Virus record (IMG/VR): IMGVR_UViG_3300047476_001538
Location: 1-64,000 of that record
Source: an uncultured virus (IMG/VR IMGVR_UViG_3300047476_001538)
Taxonomy: Duplodnaviria; Heunggongvirae; Uroviricota; Caudoviricetes
DNA length: 64,000 bases
Direction: 5' to 3' (one strand)
Shown here: positions 1 through 63,939 of the stretch, in pieces
How the letters are laid out: every line of letters starts with the position of its first letter
How positions within the stretch are numbered: the stretch's first letter is position 1
Program-made: the position numbers and the translations under genes
The notes under the pieces: model-generated
What the model was told of the DNA's origin: nothing
What the model saw: only the letters and a program-made list of their open reading frames with translations
Database searches by the model: none

Positions 1-80
1 AGAAGACCGCTAAAGTTAAAGAATTAACAGTAGTAGAAATCGAAGCGTTATTGGGTTATCCAGTAAAGGTGGTAAAATGA
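1..80 (+). CDS. 3' end of a REDGPA-repeat protein (partial, runs in from upstream)
   Basis: Translates KTAKVKELTVVEIEALLGYPVKVVK*, the conserved C-terminus of the family; ATGA overlap with next gene. Confidence 0.9.
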   Translation, partial: KTAKVKELTVVEIEALLGYPVKVVK

Positions 81-451
81 TTGAATATACAGTAAAAGTT
101 GAAGATAATGGTGATCGTTGTTGGTATCTGAATGGCAAGCTCCATAGAGAGGATGGTCCTGCTATTGAATATGCTGATGGCAGTCGTTATTGGTATCTGA
201 ATGGCAAGAGCCATCGTGAAGATGGCCCTGCTTTTGAACATTCCGATGGTAGGCGTTCTTGGTATTTGAATGGCAAGCGTCATAGGGAAGACGGTCCCGC
301 CATGGAATTTATCAATGGCACTCGTTTTTGGTATCTAAATGGCGAAGAATATACTGAAGAGGACTACATCAAGAAGACTGCTAAAGCAAAAGAACTCACT
401 GTAGCAGAAATTGAATCTTTGTTGGGTTATCAAATAAAGGTGGTAAAATGA
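77..451 (+). CDS. REDGPA (MORN-like beta-hairpin) repeat protein, 3 repeats
   Basis: 23-aa WYLNGKxHREDGPAxExxxGxRx repeats between conserved MIEYTVKV and KELTVAEIExLLGYxVKVVK ends. Confidence 0.9.
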   Translation: MIEYTVKVEDNGDRCWYLNGKLHREDGPAIEYADGSRYWYLNGKSHREDGPAFEHSDGRRSWYLNGKRHREDGPAMEFINGTRFWYLNGEEYTEEDYIKKTAKAKELTVAEIESLLGYQIKVVK

Positions 452-732
452 ATCCTAAAGTTAGAGAATTAGCAGAAAAGGCAGATTTTGTTTTCTGGCA
501 AGACGAAGCATGGAAACCTCAAGATGCCGTTATTGATTGGAGCACACAGTATGATTCAGAATTAGAAAAATTCACTAACCTTGTCATTCAGGAATGTATA
601 GATAAGATTGAAGCCTATAGAATACCTGTAGGAAATAGTCCAGCAGGAGAAATGGCCTGTGAATGGACATACGCTGCCTTAAAAGATATTCGTGATGACA
701 TCAAAGAAACTTTTGGTATTGAAAGTAATTGA
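448..732 (+). CDS. Hypothetical phage protein (paralog of 956-1213)
   Basis: MNxxxxELAxxA...LExFxxLxxxECxD...KxTFGIE shared with 956-1213; ATGA coupling. Confidence 0.8.
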   Translation: MNPKVRELAEKADFVFWQDEAWKPQDAVIDWSTQYDSELEKFTNLVIQECIDKIEAYRIPVGNSPAGEMACEWTYAALKDIRDDIKETFGIESN

Positions 733-746
733 AGGAAGTAAAAATA

Positions 747-959
747 ATGAGATATTTTCAAATTCAATATCCCGACGAAAATGATAATAATATCGTAGAG
801 GTTTTATCGGAAGAAGATATTCGTAGAGATTATTTTCCGTTTTGGTATGAAAAGATGTGTGCTAAATTTGGAAAAGCTCACGTAGACGAGAATTATACTT
901 TTGAAGATTGTTTAGGCGATTGGGAAGTAGTACATTGGGCAATTGAGGTTAAAGAATGA
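747..959 (+). CDS. Hypothetical protein
   Basis: ORF in tightly packed operon; ATG start after AAGGAAG. Confidence 0.7.
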   Translation: MRYFQIQYPDENDNNIVEVLSEEDIRRDYFPFWYEKMCAKFGKAHVDENYTFEDCLGDWEVVHWAIEVKE

Positions 960-1213
960 ACGAAAGAATTAAAGAACTTGCCAAAGAAGCAAATTTAGAT
1001 TATGATACTCATATTCCAAATGCTTGGGCTGGGACTTCTGAAGATTTGGAAAGATTTGCTAAATTGATTGTCAATGAATGTGTTGATCTGATCTTAAAAA
1101 GCGAAGAAGACGTATTTGATGAGGAAGATCCAAACAATCCATACTATCAAGGTATGATTAGAGGAAAGTTGGATGATTGCCACCTATTAAAAGATACTTT
1201 TGGGATTGAATAA
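956..1213 (+). CDS. Hypothetical phage protein (paralog of 448-732)
   Basis: Shared N-, mid- and C-terminal motifs. Confidence 0.8.
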   Translation: MNERIKELAKEANLDYDTHIPNAWAGTSEDLERFAKLIVNECVDLILKSEEDVFDEEDPNNPYYQGMIRGKLDDCHLLKDTFGIE

Positions 1214-1452
1214 TGAAAGAATCAGTTAACGTATCTGCCGCTGATTTTCCTATCAGTGATTTGAATATCTATACAAAAAATTTTCGGATTGTATACGAAC
1301 CAAAACAAGATATTACGCCTTACGAATTATCTCGCTTAATGCAACTGTTTTTTGTAACTACCATTACGTTATATGGATCTCTTAAGGTAGAAGAATTCTT
1401 GCAAGAACACAACTTAGAAAGACATTTTTCCTATCATCCTCTCAACGCTTGA
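1213..1452 (+). CDS. Hypothetical protein
   Basis: TAATG-coupled ORF. Confidence 0.7.
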   Translation: MKESVNVSAADFPISDLNIYTKNFRIVYEPKQDITPYELSRLMQLFFVTTITLYGSLKVEEFLQEHNLERHFSYHPLNA

Positions 1453-1488
1453 CTTTTCTGCCAGATGTAGTAAAATAGTCTTGTGGTT
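1449..1488 (+). promoter_or_regulatory. Repeated early promoter, copy 1
   Basis: TTGACT-N16-TAAAAT followed by conserved AGTCTTGTGGTT; near-identical copies at 3195, 6742, 9285, 9530. Confidence 0.85.
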
Positions 1489-1506
1489 GGAAAAATGGAG
1501 ACTGAA

Positions 1507-1677
1507 ATGAAAATTGTAAAAGAACCTGATGTTTTGTATGTTGTTCTGGAAGAAGATCGTGGAATGGGTGCTTCCGTTCAAGGTGTCTTTTCTGATAAAG
1601 AAAAGGCAGAAAAATTGTGTCTTGAATCTTCAAGATATTTTATTGAGGTTTCATATGTAAACGAAATTGAGGTATAA
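1507..1677 (+). CDS. Small hypothetical protein (paralog of 3255-3434)
   Basis: GGAG RBS; Y(V/I)VL...V(F/Y)SxKxxAE motif shared with 3255-3434. Confidence 0.75.
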   Translation: MKIVKEPDVLYVVLEEDRGMGASVQGVFSDKEKAEKLCLESSRYFIEVSYVNEIEV

Positions 1678-1678
1678 A

Positions 1679-1918
1679 ATGAACAACAAAGAAACCTTTC
1701 AACAAGAATTTAAAGCGTTATTAGAAAAGTATAATGTATCCATTGGTTTCCAAGTTTCGGAGTGTTCTGATACTCATGGTTTATCTGGAGAGAAGATGAT
1801 TGTCTATCACACTATCCCAAACACCCACAAAACCGAAGATTGGATTAAGGTGGATGGTTGGGATATTGGTGCTTCTGATATAGAAATTACCGAAGATGAA
1901 AATTATAACGAAGTTTAA
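1679..1918 (+). CDS. Hypothetical protein
   Basis: GAGG RBS; its 5' end is duplicated at 3436. Confidence 0.75.
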   Translation: MNNKETFQQEFKALLEKYNVSIGFQVSECSDTHGLSGEKMIVYHTIPNTHKTEDWIKVDGWDIGASDIEITEDENYNEV

Positions 1919-2558
1919 AGATTATTACGATTTCTATTCTACAAATTTTGGTGGTCCTGATCCAAAAGTAGTCTATGAGCGCCATCTATTAAACGATCTT
2001 TCTCAAATATATTTTAATGATGATTCTAAGATTAAAAATGATGAAGTTGATCTTGTTCTTAGGCTCGCTAATACTATATATGATTACGATTTCCGTTGGT
2101 TGATTGTTTGCGGGAAGAAATTTCTTCTATTCAGAAAAAGCGAATATCCAAAAACTCAAATATGGACTGCTTATAAAAATTCTACAGAAGTAGAAAAACA
2201 TCTAAATCTTCTCAAAGGAAAACGTAGTAGATGGGAGATTTTTCCTAGGAAAACTCCTGAATACTATATGGGCGAGTTTTCTCAAAAGAATCTTGATTTC
2301 TGCATTAAACACAAATCTCCTGTAGTTGTGATTGGTGGTGATAGATTTACTACAGATTCTCCAATTCTAGGTGATATTATTAACTTTGTATCAATGTATC
2401 CCGCTGAACAAATCTATCAGGATATCTCTTACTTTATGCTAAACCAAATTAATGGTAGCCCCGATATTGATCCGCCAGTAGTGTTGGATGATAAATTTAA
2501 GATTGAATATGCGGGGTTTGATAAGAAATACTCATTCAGACCTGCCATGAGAAAATAG
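1896..2558 (+). CDS. Hypothetical phage protein
   Basis: 220-aa ORF, MKIITKFKDYYD N-terminus and GFDKKxSFR C-terminus. Confidence 0.8.
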   Translation: MKIITKFKDYYDFYSTNFGGPDPKVVYERHLLNDLSQIYFNDDSKIKNDEVDLVLRLANTIYDYDFRWLIVCGKKFLLFRKSEYPKTQIWTAYKNSTEVEKHLNLLKGKRSRWEIFPRKTPEYYMGEFSQKNLDFCIKHKSPVVVIGGDRFTTDSPILGDIINFVSMYPAEQIYQDISYFMLNQINGSPDIDPPVVLDDKFKIEYAGFDKKYSFRPAMRK

Positions 2559-2567
2559 GAAAAGATC

Positions 2568-2774
2568 ATGACTATAAGTTCAGAAAGATACAGGTCAGTT
2601 GTTCAAACAGAAAAGTTTCTGTTAGATTTACTTGATCCAAAAAAGACTCCAAAAGTTCCTAAACACATTAGACAACAAGCAATATCGTGTTTGCGCCATT
2701 ATCCTTGCCAATGGGTAATGGACTTGACCTCAGAAGTTTATCCTGATATGTGGAAGAAAGAATTTAATGACTAA
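2568..2774 (+). CDS. Hypothetical phage protein
   Basis: AGGA RBS; P(K/R)VPxxIRxxAxxxLRHYP motif. Confidence 0.8.
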   Translation: MTISSERYRSVVQTEKFLLDLLDPKKTPKVPKHIRQQAISCLRHYPCQWVMDLTSEVYPDMWKKEFND

Positions 2775-3198
2775 ATCAAAATATCAAAAACCAGCAGAAG
2801 GTATAATGCTAACTCACGATTTCAAGGATGCTAAGTTTTATTCAGTAAATTGTTCGTGTACTAATCCAGATGATAAGATTGACCTTGAAATAGAAGCCGA
2901 CGAGTATGGAGAAATCGTAGTATATTTTCATACCACTGCAAAAACTCATTGGTGGAAAACTTTAGCGAATTGGGAAACTCATAAGATTGACAATCCGTTC
3001 TTATATCTCATTGTAAATTCCGTTCAATCGCTAATCAATGCATTACATCAACGAATTAAACTAACCAAAGAAATTTGGTGGAATGGATACATTTCTCTAC
3101 AAACTACTACCATTCTCACAAAGCAGACTGCATTGAATTTTTCAGAAACACTCAAGGATGCCGTCAAAGAAATAGAAACCCGAAATGATAAACCTTGA
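2767..3198 (+). CDS. Hypothetical protein
   Basis: 143-aa overlapping ORF in operon. Confidence 0.75.
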   Translation: MTKSKYQKPAEGIMLTHDFKDAKFYSVNCSCTNPDDKIDLEIEADEYGEIVVYFHTTAKTHWWKTLANWETHKIDNPFLYLIVNSVQSLINALHQRIKLTKEIWWNGYISLQTTTILTKQTALNFSETLKDAVKEIETRNDKP

Positions 3199-3234
3199 CT
3201 TTTCTGTAAATTGTAGTAAAATAGTCTTGTGGTT
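3195..3234 (+). promoter_or_regulatory. Repeated early promoter, copy 2
   Basis: TTGACT-N16-TAAAAT AGTCTTGTGGTT. Confidence 0.85.
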
Positions 3235-3254
3235 AGAAAAACGCGGAGACAAAG

Positions 3255-3434
3255 ATGAAAGTTTACATCGTGCTCGGATCAACTTATGAATATAACCCTG
3301 ATGCTGCTTCTGATGAAGTTTTGAGAGTCTATTCTTCTAAAAAAGTTGCAGAACAATTTGTTGAGAAATACAAAGAATCGTGGGATGAACTTCAAATACT
3401 TCAATATGAAGTCGAAAAAACTTTTGGAGGATAA
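3255..3434 (+). CDS. Small hypothetical protein, 59 aa (absent from ORF track)
   Basis: GGAG RBS; MKVYIVLGSTYEYNPDAASDEVLRVYSSKKVAEQF..., similar to 1507-1677. Confidence 0.75.
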   Translation: MKVYIVLGSTYEYNPDAASDEVLRVYSSKKVAEQFVEKYKESWDELQILQYEVEKTFGG

Positions 3435-3435
3435 A

Positions 3436-3516
3436 ATGAACAACAAAGAAACCTTTCAACAAGAATTCAAGAAGATGAAATTGGAGAATAGCGTCAACAA
3501 ATCATTTGACAAGTGA
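3436..3516 (+). pseudogene. Truncated copy of the 1679-1918 gene
   Basis: First ~32 nt identical (MNNKETFQQEFK), then diverges and stops after 26 codons. Confidence 0.65.
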
Positions 3517-3559
3517 TTAGTTTTCTATTATACTATCCACTTACATAGGAGCGAACAAA

Positions 3560-3850
3560 ATGGGTACAATAGATTTTGAAACTATCTCAAAAGCAAAGGG
3601 TGCTAAATCGGCTTTCAATAAAGCAGTAAAAGAAGCTCGTAAGATTCACGGGACTGGCGGATATTCGGGCACAATTGCCGAAAAGAGTTCGTTTGTAATG
3701 ATAACAGTTCCAGAAGGGGAAGATCCCCACAAATATGCCAACAAGCTTCTAGATAAGGAAGATTCTCGGATTGAGAATAAATGGGGACCGGCTGGCTGTG
3801 TAAAGGTATCTGACGGCGAATTCTTATTTTTCGGATTTGCTTCTTGTTAA
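3560..3850 (+). CDS. Hypothetical phage protein
   Basis: Own TTGACA/TATACT promoter and AGGAG RBS; GYSGTIAEK and KWGPAGC motifs. Confidence 0.8.
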   Translation: MGTIDFETISKAKGAKSAFNKAVKEARKIHGTGGYSGTIAEKSSFVMITVPEGEDPHKYANKLLDKEDSRIENKWGPAGCVKVSDGEFLFFGFASC

Positions 3851-3929
3851 AACCCTAGATTCTTGATTGACATTGCTAGTCATTGAGTGTACCATACGAC
3901 TTTACTTAACCACAACCGGAGAAAATAAG

Positions 3930-4298
3930 ATGATTATTGTAAAACAAGTTAGTTACGCATTTCTCCAGATTGGTGTATTCAATGATAGAGCACAAACTAT
4001 TCCTACTTGCTCTCAGTTCAGAATGGATTCTTCTAGGTATAACTCTTTCGCAGAATTCATCAAAAAGAATGTACAATATGCGAATCATATCCGTGATACA
4101 TATCACGATAATGCTGGTTCAAAGTCCAAATACAGTATGGGAAATGTTGATTCATTTATAACTTATGATCGTATTCCTATTGTTTTGATTACTCTTCCTA
4201 CGTTTTTACAGTTCCATTTAGTTATTGGAACTGATGTATTGACCGTGGATGCAACCGATCTTGAAGAAATTTCCAGTCAACTGGTGAAATTAAAATGA
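3930..4298 (+). CDS. Hypothetical protein leading the REDGPA array
   Basis: TTGACA/TACCAT promoter, GGAG RBS, ATGA overlap with 4295. Confidence 0.75.
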   Translation: MIIVKQVSYAFLQIGVFNDRAQTIPTCSQFRMDSSRYNSFAEFIKKNVQYANHIRDTYHDNAGSKSKYSMGNVDSFITYDRIPIVLITLPTFLQFHLVIGTDVLTVDATDLEEISSQLVKLK

Positions 4299-4738
4299 TT
4301 GAATATACAGTAAAAGTTGATGACAATGGCACTCGTTATTGCTGGCTGAATGGTAAGCGGCACCGAGAAGATGGACCTGCTATTGAATATGCTGATGGTA
4401 CTCGTTGTTGGTATCTGAATGGCGATCTTCACCGAGAAGATGGTCCTGCTGTTGAATATGCAAATGGTGATCATTGTTGGTATCTGAATGGCGATCTTCA
4501 CCGAGAAGATGGTCCTGCTGTTGAATATGCAAATGGTGATCATTGTTGGTATCTGAATGGCAAGTATCACCGAGAAGATGGTCCTGCTGTTGAACATACC
4601 AATGGTACTCGTTATTGGTTTCTGAACGACGTAGAATATACAGAAGAAGACTTCAACAAGAAGACTGCTAAAGTAAAAGAACTCACAGTAGCAGAGATTG
4701 AATCTTTGTTAGGTCATCCAGTAAAGGTGGTAAAGTGA
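4295..4738 (+). CDS. REDGPA repeat protein, 4 repeats
   Basis: 147 aa; two internal 69-bp units identical. Confidence 0.9.
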   Translation: MIEYTVKVDDNGTRYCWLNGKRHREDGPAIEYADGTRCWYLNGDLHREDGPAVEYANGDHCWYLNGDLHREDGPAVEYANGDHCWYLNGKYHREDGPAVEHTNGTRYWFLNDVEYTEEDFNKKTAKVKELTVAEIESLLGHPVKVVK

Positions 4739-5178
4739 TAGAATACAAAGTAAAAGTTAATGATTATGGCGACCGTTATTGGTACTTGAATGTCAAGCTC
4801 CATCGTGAAGATGGTCCTGCCGTTGAATGTGTAGATGGTACTCGTTTTTGGTATTTGAATGGCAAGTGTCACCGGGAAGACGGTCCTGCTATTGAAAATG
4901 CTGATGGTACTCGTTTTTGGTATTTGAATGGCAAGCGTCATCGGATAGATGGTCCTGCTATTGAACGTTCTGATGGTAGTCGTTGGTGGTATTTGAATGA
5001 CAAACTCCATCGGGAAGATGGCCCTGCTATGGAATGCATTGATGGCACTCGTTGGTGGTTTTTGAATGGTGTAGAATATACTGAAAAAGAATTCAACAAG
5101 AATACCGCTAAAGTAAAAGAATTAACTGTAGCAGAGATTGAATCATTGTTAGGTTATCAAATAAAGGTGGTAAAATGA
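4735..5178 (+). CDS. REDGPA repeat protein, 4 repeats
   Basis: 147 aa, GTGA overlap. Confidence 0.9.
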   Translation: MIEYKVKVNDYGDRYWYLNVKLHREDGPAVECVDGTRFWYLNGKCHREDGPAIENADGTRFWYLNGKRHRIDGPAIERSDGSRWWYLNDKLHREDGPAMECIDGTRWWFLNGVEYTEKEFNKNTAKVKELTVAEIESLLGYQIKVVK

Positions 5179-5549
5179 TAGAATATATAGTAAAAGTTGA
5201 TACCAATGGTGATCGTTTTTGGTATTTGAATGACAAACTCCACAGAGAAGACGGTCCCGCTTGCGAATATGCTGATGGTACTCGTTTTTGGTATTTGAAT
5301 GACAAACGTCATCGGGAAGATGGCCCTGCTATCCAATTAAAAAATGGAACTCTCCAATGGTTTTTGAATGACAATCTTCACCGAGAAGATGGCCCTGCCA
5401 TTGAAGATGCTGATGGGGACCGTGCTTGGTATTTGAACGGTGTAGAATATACCAAAATAGAATTTCTCAAGAAGACCGTTGGAGTAAGAGAACTCACTGA
5501 AGCAGAAATCGAAGAGTTATTAGGGTATCCAGTAAAGGTGGTAAAATGA
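5175..5549 (+). CDS. REDGPA repeat protein, 3 repeats
   Basis: 124 aa, ATGA overlap. Confidence 0.9.
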   Translation: MIEYIVKVDTNGDRFWYLNDKLHREDGPACEYADGTRFWYLNDKRHREDGPAIQLKNGTLQWFLNDNLHREDGPAIEDADGDRAWYLNGVEYTKIEFLKKTVGVRELTEAEIEELLGYPVKVVK

Positions 5550-5851
5550 TAGAATATACAGTAAAAGTCTTTGATAATGGTGATCGTTGGTGGTATCTGA
5601 ATGACAAGCGGCATCGAGAAGATGGTCCCGCTATTGAATATTCAAATGGTAGTCGTTGGTGGTATTTGAATGGCAAACTTCACCGAGAAGATGGTCCTGC
5701 TATGGAATTTACTAATGGTACTCGTCGTTGGTATCTGAACGACGAAGAATATACAGAAGAAGAATTCAACGAGAAGACCGCTAAAGTAAAAGAACTTACT
5801 GTAGCAGAGATCGAAAAATTATTGGGTTATTCGGTAAAGGTGGTAAAATGA
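5546..5851 (+). CDS. REDGPA repeat protein, 2 repeats
   Basis: 101 aa, ATGA overlap. Confidence 0.9.
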   Translation: MIEYTVKVFDNGDRWWYLNDKRHREDGPAIEYSNGSRWWYLNGKLHREDGPAMEFTNGTRRWYLNDEEYTEEEFNEKTAKVKELTVAEIEKLLGYSVKVVK

Positions 5852-6291
5852 TTGAATACACTGTAAAAGTATATGATAATGGCACTCGTGAGTGGTATCT
5901 GAATGGTAAGCGTCACCGAGAAGACGGTCCTGCTATTGAATGTACTAATGGTAGTAGTTGTTGGTATCAGAATGGCAAGCGGCATCGGGAAGATGGCCCC
6001 GCTATTGAATGTGCAAATGGCACTCGTCGTTGGTATCTGAATGGCAAACCTCACCGAGAAGATGGTCCTGCTGTTGAATATGTAAGTGGCACTCTCCATT
6101 GGTATTTGAATGGCAAACCTCACAGAGAAGATGGTCCTGCGTTCGAATTATATGATGGCAGTTGTTATTGGTATTTGAATGGTGAAGAATATACAGAAAA
6201 AGAATTCAACGAGAAGACCGCTAAAGTAAAAGAACTTACTGTAGCAGAGATCGAAAAATTATTGGGTTATTCGGTAAAGGTGGTAAAATGA
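5848..6291 (+). CDS. REDGPA repeat protein, 4 repeats
   Basis: 147 aa; 3' ~90 nt identical to previous gene. Confidence 0.9.
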   Translation: MIEYTVKVYDNGTREWYLNGKRHREDGPAIECTNGSSCWYQNGKRHREDGPAIECANGTRRWYLNGKPHREDGPAVEYVSGTLHWYLNGKPHREDGPAFELYDGSCYWYLNGEEYTEKEFNEKTAKVKELTVAEIEKLLGYSVKVVK

Positions 6292-6734
6292 TTGAATATA
6301 TAGTAAAAGTCGATGATAATGGTTCTAGTTGTTGGTATTTGAATGGTAAGATCCACAGAGAAGATGGTCCTGCTGTTGAATCATATGATGGTAGTCGTTA
6401 TTGGTATCTGAATGACAAACTACACAGAGAAGATGGTCCTGCTGTTGAATTAAATGATGGTAGTAGTTCTTGGTGGTTGAATGGCAAGCGTCACCGAGAA
6501 GACGGTCCTGCTATTGAATATGCAAATGGTGATCGTTATTGGTATTTGAATGACAAGTATCACCGAGAAGACGGTCCTGCTGTTGAATATATGACTGGTA
6601 TGCGTTTTTGGTATCTAAATGGCAAAGAATATACCGAAGAGGACTTCATCAAGAAGACTAAAGCAACAGAATTAACATTAGCAGAAATTGAAGCGTTGCT
6701 GGGTCATCCAGTAAAGGTGGTAAATGGCAAGTGA
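6288..6734 (+). CDS. REDGPA repeat protein, 4 repeats (last in array)
   Basis: 148 aa. Confidence 0.9.
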   Translation: MIEYIVKVDDNGSSCWYLNGKIHREDGPAVESYDGSRYWYLNDKLHREDGPAVELNDGSSSWWLNGKRHREDGPAIEYANGDRYWYLNDKYHREDGPAVEYMTGMRFWYLNGKEYTEEDFIKKTKATELTLAEIEALLGHPVKVVNGK

Positions 6735-6741
6735 AAAACGC

Positions 6742-6781
6742 TTGACTTTTCTGTAAAGTGTAGTAAAATAGTCTTGTGGTT
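6742..6781 (+). promoter_or_regulatory. Repeated early promoter, copy 3
   Basis: TTGACT-N16-TAAAAT AGTCTTGTGGTT. Confidence 0.85.
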
Positions 6782-6800
6782 GAAACTTTAGGAGTAAAAA

Positions 6801-7224
6801 ATGAACTACAAACAAACAAGCATATGATCAAGCGGTAGACGAACTCGGCTTTCAGAACCTTCCCTCTGATCCACCATCGCCAAAGTATATGTACTATGCC
6901 TACAAGAATGGAACTTGTTCTATTTTTGAAACCGAAAAGGCAGCAAAAGAGTTTTCATATATTATAGAAAAGTTTCAGGTCAATAAGGAAGAAGTATCCC
7001 AATACTGGGATACGCATACGAAGATATCCACGTTAGCAGAAAACATCTGGTACAAGGCTCTTGAAGAAAAGTATAAGGATCTTTCTCCAGAAATGTTTGT
7101 TGCTTGTTATGGCGAAGCCTATGATAGAGGTCATTCTGCTGGATGGGATGAGGTTGTTTATTATATGGACGATGTAGTATCGTTTGCTAATACAATCAAG
7201 AACATCGTTGAGAAACAACAATGA
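6801..7224 (+). pseudogene. Hypothetical gene frameshifted at an (ACAA)3 tract (or restarting at 6889)
   Basis: AGGAG-ATG at 6801 stops after 8 codons; deleting one ACAA joins it to the open frame QAYDQAVDELG...MYYAYK ending at 7224. Confidence 0.6.
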
Positions 7225-9113: not shown

Positions 9114-9288
9114 AGATACTCCAACATTTTTATTTGGTATGACTTGGGGAATAATATTGTTTGTTCTCTTTCTTAATCTGCCCTTCACAAACAATTCAAA
9201 AGCACGAAAAGCAATCGAAGAATGCGAATCAACGCTTCCAAGAAATCAACATTGCGAAATTACGGCAACCCCGAAAGAAAATCCTTGA
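9103..9288 (+). CDS. Small membrane protein
   Basis: TM helix + ECESTLPRNQHCEITATPKE C-terminus shared with 9345-9533. Confidence 0.75.
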   Translation: MMNKDTPTFLFGMTWGIILFVLFLNLPFTNNSKARKAIEECESTLPRNQHCEITATPKENP

Positions 9289-9569
9289 CTTTTTTGTAGA
9301 GTGTAGTAAAATAGTCTTGTGGTTAGAAAAACGTGGAGACAAAGATGAATGATTTTAGTTTTGTTATTTTCGTCGTAAATATAGTTTTAGCGATTTTGTT
9401 GGGTATAGTGGTTTCTATTGGAATGGTTTCATCTCCTCTCATGGAGTACCATAATGCAATTAAAGAATGCGAATCAACGCTTCCAAGAAATCAACATTGC
9501 GAAATTACGGCAACCCCGAAAGAAAAACCTTGACTTTTCTGTAAATTGTAGTAAAATAGTCTTGTGGTT
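9211..9569 (+). repeat. ~114-bp direct repeat (9211-9324 and 9456-9569) containing a gene 3' end plus early promoter copies 4 and 5
   Basis: Near-identical gaatgcgaatcaacgcttccaagaaatc...ccttgactttt...tagtaaaatagtcttgtggtt. Confidence 0.9.
9345..9533 (+). CDS. Small membrane protein
   Basis: GGAG RBS in a leader nearly identical to that at 3235-3254; TM helix; duplicated C-terminus. Confidence 0.75.
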   Translation: MNDFSFVIFVVNIVLAILLGIVVSIGMVSSPLMEYHNAIKECESTLPRNQHCEITATPKEKP

Positions 9570-9594
9570 GGAACTTTATGGGAGATTTATTGCT

Positions 9595-10485
9595 ATGATG
9601 ATTGAAGAACTACGGGATTATGTTTTATCTAATCCTAACCTAGTAAAGATGAAGCAATCTGCTACTTATCCAGATTTGTATGTGGTTAAGTATGCCAAGA
9701 AGTGTTTCTATGACGGTATCTGGAACGAATACTTAGAAAAGTGCCGTGGGTTGGTCGTAGATAAAGAATTTAATATCGTAGTTCATCCGTTTGATAAAAT
9801 TTACAATTACGGAATTGAACAACAATGTCCTAAGTTTTCTTTAGATGAAACTGTAACTGCTTTTCGTAAGATCAATGGATTTATGGTTTCAATGACTTGG
9901 CATAATGATCGTTTATTGATTTCTACGACTGGTAGTCTTGATAGCCCTTATGTCAAGATGGTTGAAGATATGATTAAGGATGATCGGCATAGGTTTGAGC
10001 ATATTTGTAAATCGTATGATGAAAATACCTTTTTATTTGAATGTTGTCATCCAGATGATCCTCACATCATACCAGAAGAACTTGGATTATATTTGTTGGG
10101 ATGGAGAGAAAAGAATTTAGAATCAAAGTTACGATTTGATCCTGATTTACTATATTCCTATGGTTTGGAATTGAGAACCAATTGGGTTGATGATTATTTC
10201 ACAACTGTATCCGATTTGATAAAATTATCAAAAAATGTAAAGCACGAAGGTTTCATTTTTTATACGGAAGATGGTAGAGCAGCAAAGATCAAGTCTCCAT
10301 ATTATTTGGTGAAGAAGTTTTTGGCACGTTGTAAGAATACCAACAAGATTCTAGCAAAAGATGCCAAGCAACGGTATCCAGAAGAATTTTATGGAATAAT
10401 TGATGCTGTTCGTGCTGACATTGATAATTTTACTTTACTTTCTGAACAGGAACGACTCTGTTATATTAGGAGATTATTATCTTAG
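9595..10485 (+). CDS. RNA ligase, T4 Rnl1-like
   Basis: CRGLV, PFDKIYN, adenylation motif KINGFM, FLFE, EGF, KIKSPYY. Confidence 0.85.
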   Translation: MMIEELRDYVLSNPNLVKMKQSATYPDLYVVKYAKKCFYDGIWNEYLEKCRGLVVDKEFNIVVHPFDKIYNYGIEQQCPKFSLDETVTAFRKINGFMVSMTWHNDRLLISTTGSLDSPYVKMVEDMIKDDRHRFEHICKSYDENTFLFECCHPDDPHIIPEELGLYLLGWREKNLESKLRFDPDLLYSYGLELRTNWVDDYFTTVSDLIKLSKNVKHEGFIFYTEDGRAAKIKSPYYLVKKFLARCKNTNKILAKDAKQRYPEEFYGIIDAVRADIDNFTLLSEQERLCYIRRLLS

Positions 10486-13696: not shown

Positions 13697-14716
13697 ATGA
13701 GACAGATGGCAACTATTAGAAGGATCGAAGAGATTCGTCCTATTCCAGACGCAGATAAGATTTGTTCTTATCGTGTGGGAGGTTGGTGGGTAGTAGATTC
13801 TATCGGAAAGTATTCTGTAGATGATCTTGTAGTTTATTGCGAGATTGATAGTTTTATTCCGCATGAGATTGCTCCTTTTCTTTCTAAGGGAAAAGAACCT
13901 AGAGAATATGAAGGCGTTAAAGGCGAAAGATTAAGAACTGTAAAATTGAAGGGGCAAATTTCACAGGGACTTCTACTTCCATTAGAACCTACTTGTTCTA
14001 TGATTGAATCTGAGTTACTTGAAAGTCTGGATGTTTCTAATCATTTAAATATTCAGAAATATGAGCCTCCAATTCCCGCCCAATTAGCAGGATTGATTAA
14101 GGGTAATTTCCCTTCAAGAATTCCTAAAACCGACCAGGAACGAATTCAGAATCTTTCAAAAGAATTTATTCAATGGAAAGAACAAGGATTAACTTTTGAG
14201 ATTACCGAAAAGTGTGATGGGTCTTCAATGACTTGTTATGTCATTGATGATGTATTTGGGGTATGTTCAAGGAATCTCGATCTTAAATTTGATGAAAATA
14301 ATACTTTTTGGAAAGTAGCAATTGCTAATAATTTTGAAGAGAAACTAAAATCCTTCGGTAAAAATATTGCTATTCAAGGGGAACTTATCGGAATGGGTGT
14401 AAATGGTAATATTTACAAAATGAACAATCATAAATTTGTTTTGTTTGATATTTACGATATTGACGAAGGAAGATATTTTAATTCCGAAGAAAGAAATGAG
14501 TTTGCTGCTGATTTTGGCATTGAACACGTTCCCGTAATTCAGTTTAATTCCTTGGTAGAGTTTAATGATATTCAATGTGTGTTGACTTTTGCAGAAGGAA
14601 AGAGTATAATCAATCCTGTTGTAGAAAGAGAAGGTTTGGTATTTAAGTGTGTGGAAAAACCTGATATTTCCTTTAAATCTATATCAAATCGTTTCTTGAT
14701 TAAGAATGGAGATTAA
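13697..14716 (+). CDS. RNA ligase, DRB0094/Rnl5 family
   Basis: N-terminal OB-like domain (IRPIPDAD, GQISQGL), KTDQERIQN, EKCDGSS, QGELIG, EGLVFK, SFKSISN. Confidence 0.9.
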   Translation: MRQMATIRRIEEIRPIPDADKICSYRVGGWWVVDSIGKYSVDDLVVYCEIDSFIPHEIAPFLSKGKEPREYEGVKGERLRTVKLKGQISQGLLLPLEPTCSMIESELLESLDVSNHLNIQKYEPPIPAQLAGLIKGNFPSRIPKTDQERIQNLSKEFIQWKEQGLTFEITEKCDGSSMTCYVIDDVFGVCSRNLDLKFDENNTFWKVAIANNFEEKLKSFGKNIAIQGELIGMGVNGNIYKMNNHKFVLFDIYDIDEGRYFNSEERNEFAADFGIEHVPVIQFNSLVEFNDIQCVLTFAEGKSIINPVVEREGLVFKCVEKPDISFKSISNRFLIKNGD

Positions 14717-32636: not shown

Positions 32637-35291
32637 ATGTATGTAGATGCTTTTCTAGAAAAAGAAAAGAATACAGTCTACGTTGTTGAACGATCTACTC
32701 ACGGTAAAAGGATATACCGTGAGTATCCGGTAGAGTATGTATTCTATTACCCAAACCAATACGGGAATCATCAGAGTATTTTTGGTACTCCCGTATCAAA
32801 ATTTAAAACAAACAATCATAAAGAGTTCAGAAAAGAACTATCAGTCCATTCTGGTGCAAAATTATTTGAATCAGATATTAACCCGGTATTCCGATGTTTA
32901 GAGAATAATTATCTTGATGCTACACCACCCAAACTTAATGTAGTATTCTTTGACGTGGAAGTGGCGTTTGATCGTGACCGAGGCTATGCGCCAACCGATG
33001 ATCCATTTAATGAAGTAACGGCAATCACTGTTTATCTTGATTGGATGGATCAAATAATCACACTTGCCGTTCCACCAAAAAATCTTACGATAGATACTGC
33101 CACTGATTTAGTGAAGGACTTTAGCAACACCTATCTTTTTGATACAGAAAAACAAATGTTATCTGTATTTTTGGATATGTTGGACGATGCTGATATTATC
33201 ACTGGTTGGAACAGCGGTGGATTTGATATTCCATATCTCGTAAATAGAATCGCCAAAGTATTAACAAGAGACGACAATAGAAAATGGTGCTTATGGGATC
33301 AATCCCCAAAAAGAAGAGTGTATGAGCGATTTGGAAGTGAGATTTTAACTTATGATTTAGTTGGTAGAGTTCATATGGACTACTACGATCTATACCGTAA
33401 ATTCACTTATGAAGAGCGACATAGTTATTCATTGGATGCCATCGGTGAATACGAGTTGGGAGATCGTAAGGTGTCCTACGAGGGTTCACTTGACCAACTT
33501 TATCATCAAGACTTCAAAAAGTTTATTGATTATAATAGACAAGACGTTATGTTAGTATTCAAGCTGGACCAAAAGCTAAAGTTCATGGAACTGGCAAATA
33601 CGCTGGCTCATAAAAACACGGTACTACTACCGACTGCATTGGGTTCGGTTGCCATGATTGAGCAAGCGATTATCAACGAAGCTCATAAACAAGGAGTGGT
33701 AGTACCAGACAAGACAAGATCGGATGGAATAGACACTCAAGCAGCGGGTGCATATGTTGCGGTTCCTGTAAAGGGAATGCATGAATATATCGGTTCTATT
33801 GATATTAACTCACTATATCCTTCTACACTTCGTGCATTGAATATGGGTCAGGAAACTATTGTTGGTCAAATTAGACCAACGATGACCGATGAGCATATTG
33901 CTAATTTAATGAGGGAAGGCAAGAAGGGTGGAGAACTATGGGATGGGCTATTCGCTACATTAGAGTATACCGCTGTTATGGAAATGCGAGATACACCTCT
34001 GATTTTAGATTGGAACGATGGTAAATCAGAAGAATTATCTGCCAGATTAATTTGGAAGTTGATATTTGATAGTGATTTGCCGTGGGGATTATCAGCCAAT
34101 GGTACTATTTTTACATTCCAAAAAGAAGCAATTGTTCCAGGTCTTCTGAAAAAATGGTATTCTCAGAGAAAAGAATTTCAAGCTAAATTGAATAAACTGA
34201 TTGAGAAAGATGCACCAAAAGAAGAAATAGATTATTGGGATAGACAACAGCACTCTATCAAAATTTTCATTAATAGCCTCTACGGCGCAATTCTCAACCA
34301 GCATTGCAAGTTTTTTGATAAAAGAATAGGCCAATCTACCACATTAACAGGTAGATCAATATGTAAGCATATGGCGGCAAAGGTAAATGAACTAATATGC
34401 GAAGAATACAATCATGAAGGCAAGTCAATAATTTATGGTGATACTGACAGTTGTTATTTCTCAGCGTGGCCGATAGTAAGCAAAGACCAAAATGCAAAAT
34501 GGGACAAGGAAATAGCCATTCGTGTATATGATTCAATTGCAGATCAAGTTAATGAATCATTTCCGTCCTTTATGGAACAAGCATTTCATTGTCCACGATC
34601 TTTTGGGGAGATTATCAGGGGTGGTAGAGAAATTGTAGCAAGGCGTGGGATTTTCATAACCAAAAAGCGTTATGCAGTGATGTATTATGACAAGGATGGA
34701 CACCGATATGACAATGATGGCAAAGTAGGTAAACTAAAAGCGATGGGATTAGACTTAAAGCGATCCGATACCCCAAAATTCGTTCAAAAGTTTTTAGTAG
34801 AGATACTTGAAGACGTGCTAAATGGCGGTAACAAAGAAGACGTTATTGAGAAAATTCTTGCATTCAAACTTCAATTTATGGAATTACCATCATGGGAGAA
34901 AGGAACTCCAAAGAGAGTGAATAATCTTACCAAGTTCACTGTAATGTATGATAAAAACGCAAGGTCCAATCTTCCCGGTCACGTAAGGGCGGCAGTCAAT
35001 TGGAATATCTTGCGAGAAATTAACAAAGACAACAAGGTCATGAAAATAAATGATGGTCAAAAAACTATCGTATGCAAGCTAAGAAATAACGCTTTAAATT
35101 GGACATCTATTGCATATCCGATTGACGAACAACATCTACCAAAATGGTTTCTTGAATTGCCGTTTGATGATAATCTGATGATGACCACAATCGTAGATAA
35201 AAAGATTGACAATGTCATTGGAGTATTGGATTGGAATTTAAGAGAATCCACTGAACTAACAAACACTTTTCAAAGCCTATTTGACTTCTGA
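32637..35291 (+). CDS. Family B DNA polymerase (T4 gp43-like)
   Basis: Exo I FDVEV, Exo II GWNSxxFDIPY, Exo III YNRQD; DINSLYPS, KIFINSLYG, YGDTDS, KKRY. Confidence 0.97.
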   Translation: MYVDAFLEKEKNTVYVVERSTHGKRIYREYPVEYVFYYPNQYGNHQSIFGTPVSKFKTNNHKEFRKELSVHSGAKLFESDINPVFRCLENNYLDATPPKLNVVFFDVEVAFDRDRGYAPTDDPFNEVTAITVYLDWMDQIITLAVPPKNLTIDTATDLVKDFSNTYLFDTEKQMLSVFLDMLDDADIITGWNSGGFDIPYLVNRIAKVLTRDDNRKWCLWDQSPKRRVYERFGSEILTYDLVGRVHMDYYDLYRKFTYEERHSYSLDAIGEYELGDRKVSYEGSLDQLYHQDFKKFIDYNRQDVMLVFKLDQKLKFMELANTLAHKNTVLLPTALGSVAMIEQAIINEAHKQGVVVPDKTRSDGIDTQAAGAYVAVPVKGMHEYIGSIDINSLYPSTLRALNMGQETIVGQIRPTMTDEHIANLMREGKKGGELWDGLFATLEYTAVMEMRDTPLILDWNDGKSEELSARLIWKLIFDSDLPWGLSANGTIFTFQKEAIVPGLLKKWYSQRKEFQAKLNKLIEKDAPKEEIDYWDRQQHSIKIFINSLYGAILNQHCKFFDKRIGQSTTLTGRSICKHMAAKVNELICEEYNHEGKSIIYGDTDSCYFSAWPIVSKDQNAKWDKEIAIRVYDSIADQVNESFPSFMEQAFHCPRSFGEIIRGGREIVARRGIFITKKRYAVMYYDKDGHRYDNDGKVGKLKAMGLDLKRSDTPKFVQKFLVEILEDVLNGGNKEDVIEKILAFKLQFMELPSWEKGTPKRVNNLTKFTVMYDKNARSNLPGHVRAAVNWNILREINKDNKVMKINDGQKTIVCKLRNNALNWTSIAYPIDEQHLPKWFLELPFDDNLMMTTIVDKKIDNVIGVLDWNLRESTELTNTFQSLFDF

Positions 35292-49621: not shown

Positions 49622-49701
49622 CTATCAAAAAGTATACTGTCTACTGGCGTATGAGACAACACTGCTCATAATAAAGGTCCAAACAGTATACTTTTTGATA
49701 G
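49622..49701. repeat. Perfect 19-bp inverted repeat enclosing a 42-nt structured loop
   Basis: CTATCAAAAAGTATACTGT / ACAGTATACTTTTTGATAG; inner TATGAG/CTCATA hairpin. Confidence 0.85.
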
Positions 49702-49727
49702 ACGAGAAAGGATTTGAATTAAACAAT

Positions 49728-50050
49728 GGTTGTATATCTTTCAAAGTGAAGGCATTGCGGACGGCGGTTCGATCCCGCCCATTTCCAAAAATTTCTCTTC
49801 AAGATCATTCGACTGAGTGATCTTGTGGGGAATGACATGGTTTCGACGTGGTGAGATAGTGGAGAAGGCAACCCGAGAGATGTCTGACGTAATCAGCATA
49901 AACATTATAGATGCTAAATCTACAAAAACTTCTGGAACTGTTACTGTATCTGGTAAGGGCATGAAATTTTCTGCTCGCACCGCTGTACGTGGAGTTGCGC
50001 TAGCCTAAGAAACTGGCACCAGCGGAGTTGATCACTCTGTTACAAGAACG
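49728..50050 (+). ncRNA. ssrA: Circularly permuted (two-piece) tmRNA
   Basis: T-arm GGCGG-TTCGATC-CCGCC + CATTTCC-A (ends 49787) precedes GGGAATG-ACATGGTTTCGAC (starts 49828); acceptor stem has G3.U70; tag frame 49913-50008. Confidence 0.9.
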
Positions 50051-50053
50051 ATT

Positions 50054-50083
50054 AAGAAAGCCCCTTTATTGGGGCTTTTCTTT
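50054..50083 (+). terminator. Intrinsic terminator after tmRNA
   Basis: AAAGCCCC-tttatt-GGGGCTTT TCTTT. Confidence 0.85.
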
Positions 50084-50145
50084 GCTTGACATTCAGCAAA
50101 CATTGTGTTATCATATATTTTTTAATTACGCTTTAGGAGGATCAT

Positions 50146-62539: not shown

Positions 62540-62610
62540 CGCCCGATAAATATGAGTAATCGAAGAGGAAAAATTATACTGGTTGATTTGTTGATGATAA
62601 ATAATCAATA

Positions 62611-62684
62611 CGGCCTTGACGAGATTCGAACTCGTAACCTTCCCATTAGTCAAGCAGGCGCTCTGTCCATTGAGCTACAAGGCC
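62611..62684 (-). tRNA. Atypical tRNA (Arg-like body, degenerate anticodon arm, nominal GAC)
   Basis: GGCCTTG/CAAGGCC acceptor, GCTC/GAGC D-stem, ACGAG-TTCGAAT-CTCGT T-arm; weak CCTGC/ATGGG stem; no CCA; own TTGACT-N17-TAATAT promoter. Confidence 0.75.
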
Positions 62685-62767
62685 GTGTCTATATTACACG
62701 ATTATCATCAGGCAGTCAAGGTAAATTTTTATGGCAGTCTTCGGCGTAGATAAATAAGATTTATAAT

Positions 62768-62842
62768 GCCTCTATAGTTTAACGGGAAAAACAAGGGATT
62801 TGTAACCCCTAGTTCCCGGGTCAGTTCCGGGTGGGGGCTCCA
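62768..62842 (+). tRNA. tRNA-Thr(TGT), non-canonical T-loop
   Basis: GCCTCTA/TGGGGGC, anticodon loop TT-TGT-AA, CCCGG-GTCAGTT-CCGGG, T-CCA. Confidence 0.85.
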
Positions 62843-62847
62843 TTTAA

Positions 62848-62876
62848 GAAAAAGCGCATTTATTGCGCTTTTTTGT
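62848..62876 (+). terminator. Intrinsic terminator
   Basis: AAAAAGCGCA-ttta-TTGCGCTTTTTT. Confidence 0.8.
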
Positions 62877-62990
62877 TGTCACTTAAAAAGGTGATAAATA
62901 AATGTAGGTAATCAGATACACCACATATCCGAAACCGGTCTGGAGGACAACGGCTGTCCCTACGACATTATTTATTATCTGGAGGAATCA

Positions 62991-63653
62991 ATGGCAATAA
63001 TTGCTCTATATGTAAAAACTCATAGAAAAACAGGATTGAAGTATCTTGGTAAAACAACATCCGCTGATCCTTGTGTGTACAAAGGATCAGGCACTCGTTG
63101 GACTCGTCATCTGAACAAACACGGTGATGATGTTGACACGGAAATAATTCGCTGGTGTACTCCAGATTCTATCAAATATTGGGGTATATACTTCTCCAAT
63201 CTGTGGAATGTTGTAGAAGACGATAACTGGGCTAATCTTAGACCGGAAATAGGCGACGGTGGTTTTGGACCAGAACCAGGAGAGAAAGGAAGAGCCACTC
63301 AAAAAATATTGAGAGAAACCGACTCTGAATGGGTTGAGGAATGTAGTAAAGCAATATCATTGGGTGTGCAAAGATTCTACGAGGAGGGAGGAGTAGGATC
63401 ATTCACTGGCAAAAAGCACGATATCAACTACTACAACAAACTAAAAATAACTCATCAAAATAACAAGCATCAACAAGGAGAAAAAAATTCACAGCATGGT
63501 ACAAGATGGATAAATAATAGTGGATACAACACGAAGTGGAGTATTGACAATTCAATACCACTCGGTTGGATGGCAGGTAGAATAATGAAACTACCATCGT
63601 TGCCAAAAGATGAAAAACAAAAATTATTGAGTCAGTTTATAGTAGATAAATAA
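62991..63653 (+). CDS. GIY-YIG (Seg-like) homing endonuclease within tRNA cluster
   Basis: LYVKTH..TGLKYLGKT, YKGSG..W, WANL..E.GDGG; NUMOD-like GSFTGKKH and GEKNSQ.GT.WI. Confidence 0.85.
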   Translation: MAIIALYVKTHRKTGLKYLGKTTSADPCVYKGSGTRWTRHLNKHGDDVDTEIIRWCTPDSIKYWGIYFSNLWNVVEDDNWANLRPEIGDGGFGPEPGEKGRATQKILRETDSEWVEECSKAISLGVQRFYEEGGVGSFTGKKHDINYYNKLKITHQNNKHQQGEKNSQHGTRWINNSGYNTKWSIDNSIPLGWMAGRIMKLPSLPKDEKQKLLSQFIVDK

Positions 63654-63666
63654 AATAACAGTTTAT

Positions 63667-63750
63667 TCCGAGATGACGAAACGGTAGCCGTAGTTGACTG
63701 TTAATCAACCGCCGAAAGGCTTGCAGGTTCAAGTCCTGCTCTCGGAGCCA
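63667..63750 (+). tRNA. tRNA-Asn(GTT) with long variable arm
   Basis: TCCGAGA/TCTCGGA, GTTGA-CT-GTT-AA-TCAAC, V-arm GCC-GAAA-GGC, GCAGG-TTCAAGT-CCTGC, G-CCA. Confidence 0.88.
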
Positions 63751-63762
63751 CATTAAAAATAC

Positions 63763-63790
63763 AAAGCCTCAACATTGGGGCTTTTATTTT
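63763..63790 (+). terminator. Intrinsic terminator
   Basis: AAAGCCTCAA-ca-TTGGGGCTTTT. Confidence 0.75.
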
Positions 63791-63850
63791 GTCTCCTATA
63801 TTTCATCTATTGACATTTATGCCACGGTATGATATGATGTATCTGTAGTT

Positions 63851-63939
63851 GGGGTGGTGGCGGAATTGGTAGACGCGCTTGATTGCCAATTAAGTGGCTC
63901 TTGTATGTCGTAAAGGTTCGAATCCCTTTCACTCCACCA
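63851..63939 (+). tRNA. Class II-type tRNA with Gly anticodon (GCC) on a Leu/Ala-like body
   Basis: GGGGTGG/TCACTCC, GCG-GAATTGGTAGA-CGC D-arm, CTTGA-TT-GCC-AA-TTAAG, ~17-nt variable region, A-CCA. Confidence 0.85.

Follow-up and report, generated by a model that had tools for sequence, protein, structure and literature searches.

The closest described counterparts of the proteins presented here are the MORN repeat proteins. In the available text of Sajko et al. 2020 (PMC7725318), the MORN repeat is defined from structures as a unit of 23 residues with a GxG motif, the glycine G10 and a YEGEW motif, and MORN sheets are reported to bind partner proteins along a groove and to dimerise. Multigene families of repeat proteins with ankyrin, FNIP, MORN and other repeats are described for giant viruses in the part of Shukla et al. 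2018 (PMC5753266) that was available to us. We analyzed arrays of genes encoding small 23-residue repeat proteins in the first 64 kb (64,000 nucleotides, hereafter the window) of the uncultured virus record IMGVR_UViG_3300047476_001538 of IMG/VR (75,771 bases, CheckV completeness approximately 21%). We found that the array is a well-resolved instance of a large unnamed MORN-like family and no new kind of system. We consider it fairly probable that the genes are a lineage-specific tandem expansion of this very large family, arranged in two operons and acting as cytoplasmic protein-binding adaptors.

The record contains seven complete family genes and one 3' fragment, located at two sites: site 1 has at least two genes, and site 2 has six. 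We did not find any further family copy in the whole 75,771-base record. The genes and an example of their junctions are as follows.

3-77, plus strand: truncated by the contig start, this further family gene retains its final 25 codons (KTAKVKELTVVEIEALLGYPVKVVK), which share 88% identity with the tail of the gene starting at 4295; an ATGA overlap joins it to the next gene
77-451, plus strand: family gene of 124 amino acids with 3 units, at site 1, ATGA-coupled to the unrelated gene 448-732
4295-4738, plus strand: family gene of 147 amino acids with 4 units, the first of six head-to-tail genes at site 2
4735-5178, plus strand: family gene of 147 amino acids with 4 units and a GTG start
5175-5549, plus strand: family gene of 124 amino acids with 3 units and the most divergent tail
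5546-5851, plus strand: family gene of 101 amino acids with 2 units
5848-6291, plus strand: family gene of 147 amino acids with 4 units
6288-6734, plus strand: family gene of 148 amino acids with 4 units, the last of the array, with a tail ending VKVVNGK
4724-4731, plus strand: example of the Shine-Dalgarno-like 8-mer AAGGTGGT, which lies within the KVVK codons 3 nt before the next start and is identical at all junctions

All junctions between family genes are 4-base overlaps, ATGA or GTGA. Each gene encodes an MIEYxVKV head, two to four units of the form WYLNGKxHREDGPAxExxxGxxx (23 amino acids) and a KELTVAEIExLLGxxVKVVK tail. In the order of the genes there are 3+4+4+3+2+4+4 = 24 contiguous units, with none left out of the count. 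Positions N4, H8, R9, D11, G12, P13, A14 and G20 are invariant in the 24 units, and the highest entropy was observed at positions 23, 18, 17, 7, 15 and 21, in this order. The first-pass annotation of this DNA had described seven complete genes and one partial gene, coupled stop to start and carrying two to four repeats, and every detail of this description that we checked was right. Its list of residue pairs following GPAxE was also right, with CI and CA as the sole omissions. The array observation is therefore confirmed, and the architecture is not a matter of chance, since 7,921 of the 8,000 candidates scored in a database of 90% clusters share it (match to the family at E <= 1e-3).

The family is large. 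In a library clustered at 50%, 28,207 representatives matched it at E <= 1e-3, and 15,256 of them at E <= 1e-10. Of the 120 homologues listed, 44 had the modal length of 124 amino acids, 93 carried the head motif and 54 the tail motif. The window genes show the features of HREDGPA-type members, namely an M-I/K-E-Y-x-V head, WYLNGKxHREDGPA units, an ELTxxEIxxxLG...K tail and a length of approximately 100-150 amino acids. Arrays are common as well: 43 of 80 viral loci found with the family profile carried at least two family open reading frames (ORFs) and 16 carried at least five, with a maximum of ten. The family is also present in bacterial assemblies of many phyla, where 217 of 449 pattern matches were confirmed. 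Members in Janthinobacterium, Undibacterium and Limnohabitans genomes give a weak hint of a freshwater betaproteobacterial host for the phage. In a Janthinobacterium sp. genome contig (L110, 3908-7288) there are seven ATGA-coupled family genes of 3-5 units each, with MKNGRYEE... heads and ...KPKPTQKRSKI tails of their own. This array directly follows a gene for a 162-residue protein, which we take to resemble a plasmid mobilisation protein.

Heads and tails are constant within an array but particular to it, also where the genes lie 12-40 nt apart. Because tails are held constant in such non-overlapping arrays too, the constancy is not a mere by-product of the embedded ribosome-binding site. 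Between related arrays the tails differ widely, for example ...KPKPTQKRSKI or ...IVEIDGIKYRL.

No model in Pfam, NCBIfam or PHROGs describes the HREDGPA-type family. The Pfam family MORN_2 (PF07661) reached 11.6 and 11.1 bits in two of the seven window genes, as compared with a gathering score of 29.6, and was not found in the other five. In PHROGs the family proteins gave stray matches only (E of 2e-4 or weaker), in NCBIfam nothing relevant was found, and searches of PDB by sequence, with a single protein or with a profile of 46 sequences, returned nothing below E 0.2, MORN chains included. The terms 'HREDGPA' and 'DUF6745' returned no paper in full-text literature searches. MORN and YwqK are not mentioned in the main text of a jumbo-phage review (PMC7824862), nor do they occur in the first 300,000 characters of PMC3482391; the main text of the Atu_ph07 paper (PMC6102473) is silent on MORN, on repeats and on paralogues. 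Fourteen long proteins carrying the repeat were scanned and contained DUF6745 fragments only, plus LRV/HEAT repeats in one of them, with no functional fusion partner in any of the fourteen. The window proteins do not match DUF6745 (PF20530) as a domain: it scored 27.3 bits in one of the seven genes (cut-off 27) and 14.9-23.3 bits in the others, and the alignments cover only about 17 to 45 of its 206 positions, a stretch about as long as a single repeat.

We modelled the 124-residue protein encoded at 77-451 with AlphaFold2, using 45 homologues. The model had a mean predicted local distance difference test score (pLDDT) of 95.5 and a predicted template modelling score (pTM) of 0.75. Assignment by DSSP gave an N-terminal strand (E5-8) and recurring short strands and turns, followed by two helices (94-101 and 109-116). 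The predicted fold is a row of two to four beta-hairpin units, capped by a single strand at the N-terminus and by two helices at the C-terminus. The top Foldseek matches in PDB were MORN4 and TbMORN1 (E 4e-3, probability 0.91-1.0), TgMORN1, radial-spoke MORN proteins, junctophilin and SET7/9, and VIA-align placed MORN4 first and the CPAP G-box next. Strong matches (E down to 4e-12) were obtained among predicted viral structures, including proteins of Atu_ph07, of Celeribacter phage P12053L and of giant viruses, the last bearing the name MORN repeat protein. A homodimer prediction with two copies of the 124-residue protein scored 0.01 against a mark of 0.42, a result that carries no weight either way. 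By their sequences the family proteins of the window are hydrophilic, mildly acidic and without a membrane segment (isoelectric points 4.9-6.1; grand average of hydropathicity -0.75 to -1.04; no hydrophobic 19-mer above 0.8).

For the constant and the variable positions we estimated the ratio of non-synonymous to synonymous substitution rates (dN/dS) by the Nei-Gojobori method from the 23 distinct units. Frame sites gave dN/dS of 0.02 (dS 0.85) and intermediate sites 0.52 (dS 0.43). Outside the units, the tails gave 0.25 (dS 0.52) and the heads 0.34. Many synonymous codons are in use at the conserved residues: R9 is written with five codons, and the codons divide 15 to 9 at H8 and 13 to 10 at L3. 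Given the low dN/dS and this codon diversity, the frame and both ends are kept by purifying selection acting over a long time and not by recent copying. The six variable sites gave dN/dS of 1.18 (dS 0.68), a value which cannot show positive selection because variability was the criterion by which the sites were picked and dS approaches saturation; by this estimate they evolve at an about neutral rate. Elsewhere in the family, 388 units of 120 other members vary at these same positions, in an alignment anchored on H8, G12 and A14, at which constancy arises by construction. By the DSSP assignment of the AlphaFold2 model, the most variable residues 17, 18 and 21 fall in the inter-strand turn (17-21), with 15 and 23 flanking it. 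In our reading, the variable residues probably lie along one edge of the sheet. The earlier description of the genes as a repertoire of paralogues, in which repeat proteins keep their frame and vary in loop positions, is supported. Its term 'hypervariable' was too strong, considering a ratio of 1.18 at saturating dS and sites that are free throughout the family.

Recent recombination was visible at two places in the window.

4409-4546, plus strand: two perfectly identical 69-bp units in tandem (4409-4477 = 4478-4546), the sole identical pair among the 24 units
5760-5851, plus strand: 92-nt tract identical to 6200-6291, a gene conversion of the tail, with the breakpoint confirmed by comparison with the related contig L081

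The remaining pairs have at most 34 identical bases in common, and the units average 76% nucleotide identity. Codons 1-71 of the gene at 5546-5851 are orthologous to 5467-5772 of L081 (99% identical), with two synonymous and no non-synonymous differences. In codons 72-101, 11 codons differ from L081, exactly where the copy becomes identical to the gene at 5848. The 3' end of this gene was therefore replaced by gene conversion, and the breakpoint can be read. Both the identical internal units and the shared 3' ends had been pointed out in the first-pass annotation, which took them as signs of recent recombination among the genes. We agree for the 69-bp duplication and the converted 92-nt 3' end. 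Since the units are on average only 76% identical and the tails have dS of 0.52, recent recombination is limited to these two events, and most pairs of paralogues are old.

Near-identical relatives allowed array gain, loss and conversion to be demonstrated directly. The contigs L081 and L082 are 98.3% identical to window 1232-3211 over 1,981 nt of flank. At site 1 they carry four coupled family genes in place of the fragment 3-77 and the gene 77-451. At site 2 they have no family gene, and a reverse-strand ORF of 304 codons takes the place of the array. L081 contains a near-identical counterpart (94%) of one of the seven window genes, and the other six are 66-84% identical to their best L081 relatives; the L081 counterpart of the 101-residue gene sits in the other array. 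In L084 and L085, whose flanks are 91-98% identical to the window, there is no family gene at either site. In L174, where the neighbouring protein is 100% identical, site 1 holds a one-unit gene of 78 codons, which extends the length series to 78/101/124/147. The other 17 loci contained no family gene with two or more units, under a rule of at least two motifs per ORF that missed the one-unit gene of L174. Thus copy number and repeat number do vary among relatives, as had been anticipated, with four, one or no genes at site 1 despite near-identical flanks. We conclude that whole genes are gained and lost in the arrays, that 69-bp units are exchanged unequally and that gene conversion occurs occasionally. 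As phages with near-identical flanks carry four, one or no genes, the arrays are dispensable, fast-changing accessory modules. Such a pattern is frequent in host-interaction genes. In four public sequencing runs compared with 4200-6800, contigs break inside the repeats and are joined mostly to other family copies, so that alleles of repeat number cannot be read there. An exact search of metagenome contigs with window 1-61 for an upstream extension of the array gave no match, and no relative of the downstream flank protein (6889-7221) was found in viral contigs.

Two further observations concern these relatives. L174 lacks the window segment 1868-3194 while its flanks are 84-97% identical, which marks this genome part as mosaic. 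The 304-codon ORF at site 2 of L081 (14233-15147, minus strand) has repeated REDG[TS]S...D[RK]V motifs and looks homing-endonuclease-like.

The source virus is, as judged from its sequence, an uncultured freshwater jumbo phage, because its DNA polymerase is nearest to those of phages of 340-490 kb and near-identical DNA occurs in lake and freshwater metagenomes. The polymerase, of family B (32637-35291), is 42-48% identical to its nearest matches, all from phages of this size, among them Sinorhizobium phage Phosso, Agrobacterium phage Atu_ph07, Yersinia fHe-Yen9-04 and Salmonella Munch. The near-identical DNA came from 20 studies, and the best holders possibly include the source sample; a search of GenBank phages for near-identical DNA gave no match.

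Both arrays lie within runs of small genes on the same strand. Such runs are preceded by a 41-nt sigma-70-type cassette, TTGACT-16-TAAAAT followed by AGTCTTGTGGTT. With up to 3 mismatches it was found four times, where 0 were expected (3194-3234, 6741-6781, 9284-9324 and 9529-9569), and a more diverged copy lies at approximately 1448 (1448-1488). The elements around the six-gene operon are as follows.

3194-3234, plus strand: promoter cassette (consensus match), the nearest upstream of the six-gene operon
6728-6744, plus strand: terminator-like hairpin directly after the last array gene, from a consensus scan
6741-6781, plus strand: next copy of the cassette, marking the end of the transcription unit of the array

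A contig of 177 nt from an RNA library covers 5737-5913 without mismatch; as DNA may be present in such libraries, it is a faint hint of transcription.

Several other features of the window were noted. The site-1 family gene is directly followed by small paralogous genes at 448-732 and 956-1213 (MNPKVRELAEKAD... and MNERIKELAKEAN...), both ending ...DTFGIE, whose protein has relatives in 63 metagenome loci; among ten neighbouring small genes compared with Pfam, no family scored above its own cut-off. A distance of 3 kb separates two RNA ligase-like genes of different kinds (9418-10485 and 13697-14716; phrog_562 and phrog_968). An ORF of 1,964 codons at 16114-22008 matches only PHROGs of unknown function (phrog_36119, phrog_21376). 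ARAGORN identified a permuted transfer-messenger RNA with a 31-residue tag at 49698-50099. Four tRNA genes are located at 62610-63939, Val-GAC on the minus strand and Thr-TGT, Asn-GTT and Gly-GCC on the plus strand.

How would a tandem expansion of MORN-like adaptors work? The operons may be transcribed early from host-type promoters, and the coupled genes would give co-translated paralogues that remain in the host cytoplasm; this outline is drawn from the cassettes, the hairpin, the hydrophilicity of the proteins and their lack of a membrane segment. By analogy with MORN sheets, we infer that the proteins serve there as protein-binding adaptors. The free positions could set partner preference, with the caps chiefly stabilising the sheet, and the turnover among near-identical phages might reflect selection by differing hosts.

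A number of results weigh against this account. The Pfam MORN model (PF02493) was not listed for any of the seven genes at E <= 1. The GxG motif is present in 0 of the 24 window units, where H8 is followed by R-E-D-G-P-A, so that HREDGPA replaces HGxG. YEGEW is not found either, and the strand reads x-x-W-Y-L, with the aromatic residues kept. Foldseek gave no match in PDB at E <= 1e-3, and the VIA-align score for MORN4 (Z 6.7, root-mean-square deviation 4.8, 95 residues aligned; Z 6.4 for the CPAP G-box) is within the range which that program calls middling and common for unrelated sheets. Relatives in cultured phages, such as gp09 of Celeribacter phage P12053L and the Atu_ph07 copies, are annotated 'hypothetical protein', and no member has a known partner, target or phenotype. 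A dN/dS of about 1 at sites picked post hoc fits a mere lack of constraint equally well. Promoter-like sites number 29 in total, as compared with 33.7 in shuffles; the repeated 41-nt cassette is the only signal which beats chance, and early expression is read from consensus promoter matches.

The strongest alternative, given as an example in the first-pass annotation, is a repertoire for anti-defence or immunity, in which each paralogue would bind and neutralise a different host defence protein or toxin and the arrays would be swapped with hosts. The quick gain and loss among phages with 91-98% identical flanks agrees with this, as do the position of the arrays amid small genes behind host-type promoter cassettes and the location of the Janthinobacterium array beside a gene that resembles one for plasmid mobilisation. 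One database source also labels a homologue 'antitoxin component YwqK', but this is a single automatic label among 120 listed matches. PADLOC models gave no match to the family proteins, their mild acidity does not suggest DNA mimicry, and dN/dS gives no positive selection. We therefore regard such a repertoire as unlikely, with an appreciable chance of being right. A related and distinctly unlikely possibility is that the genes are exchangeable binder cassettes shared by phages and mobile elements. Turn residues (17, 18, 21 and 23) would choose host targets such as defence sensors or toxins, the tail would dock a common partner, and the cassettes would track the targets of their hosts. If this were true, one of the largest unnamed families would be a natural counterpart of designed repeat-protein binders.

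The proteins could also form a self-assembling scaffold, in which the head strand and the tail would join molecules head-to-tail or tail-to-tail into filaments or meshes, as has been proposed for TbMORN1, and the paralogues would be interchangeable subunits. In the available text of PMC7725318, TbMORN1 dimerises by its C-terminus and a single N-terminal strand is proposed as a 'split repeat' oligomeriser. The head of the window protein is likewise a single strand in the AlphaFold2 model (E5-8), and translational coupling would yield near-equal amounts of the paralogues. One shared assembly interface is, however, hard to fit with the widely differing tails of related arrays, and we give this explanation a low probability.

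Equally improbable, in our estimate, is that the array is a neutral or dosage amplification, produced by unequal crossing-over of 69-bp repeats, with no distinct targets and with unconstrained variable sites. It would account for the dN/dS near 1 at the variable sites, for the freedom of the same positions throughout the family and for the dispensability of the arrays in close relatives. It does not account for seven genes that keep their frames, caps and coupling despite dS of 0.5-0.85. The orthologous pair shared with L081, with 0 non-synonymous against 2 synonymous differences over 71 codons including variable sites, points in the same direction, as a very small sample.

Proteins packaged in the virion or injected are very improbable: the sequences show neither an evident leader nor a cleavage motif, their heads are repeat-like capping strands, and the genes lie amid small genes with host-type cassettes, far from any structural genes identified in this DNA. 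A diversity-generating retroelement with targeted hypermutation can be dismissed almost entirely, in spite of the concentration of variation at few codons, as there is no reverse transcriptase (RVT_1) in the 75.8-kb record (approximately 21% of the genome), synonymous divergence in the frame equals that of the variable sites, and those positions are also the ones that vary in the 388 units of other family members.

The gain of this analysis is evolutionary detail, that is gain, loss, repeat-number change and conversion, rather than function. The relatives form a natural experiment, in which almost identical flanks enclose four genes, one gene or none and a conversion breakpoint is readable to the codon. 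In aquatic phages, few uncharacterised small-protein families are as abundant as this one, which is also found in bacteria of many phyla. If targets are found, the scaffold could explain part of the strain-level host specificity of large phages and could serve as a small, stable binder framework.

In comparison with known systems, three groups of proteins are close. MORN_2 has a repeat of similar length that starts W-Y-x-N-G, and one homologue of the window proteins is labelled YwqK; the window scores, however, are below its cut-off, and no toxin gene was seen beside the arrays. MORN_2 is the family behind the 'YwqK antitoxin' label and is linked to COG2849. The giant-virus families, as presented in the available part of PMC5753266, are likewise clustered paralogous genes with repeat domains in large viral genomes and are thought to act via protein-protein contacts. 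They belong to viruses of eukaryotes and mostly encode larger proteins, whereas the window genes are minimal, operonic, translationally coupled and carried by a phage.

The solved MORN proteins (MORN4/retinophilin, 6jle; TbMORN1, TgMORN1 and PfMORN1, 6t68/6t69/6t4d; junctophilins) are the best structural matches of the window protein by two aligners, although weakly. Both have a period of 23 residues. The beta hairpin with a connecting loop in each unit, the elongated sheet and the incomplete first repeat that serves as a cap, as seen in MORN proteins, are predicted for the window protein. The window units have a MORN-like aromatic ladder (W1, Y2), and their NGKxH stretch recalls the original MORN consensus YEGEWxNGKxHGYG. 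Unlike MORN proteins, the window proteins are tiny (101-148 amino acids), have a helical C-terminal cap and are encoded in coupled gene arrays. The HREDGPA repeat is therefore a MORN-like variant and not a strict member of the MORN family, because the GxG and YEGEW motifs are missing but the period, the aromatic pair and NGKxH are kept.

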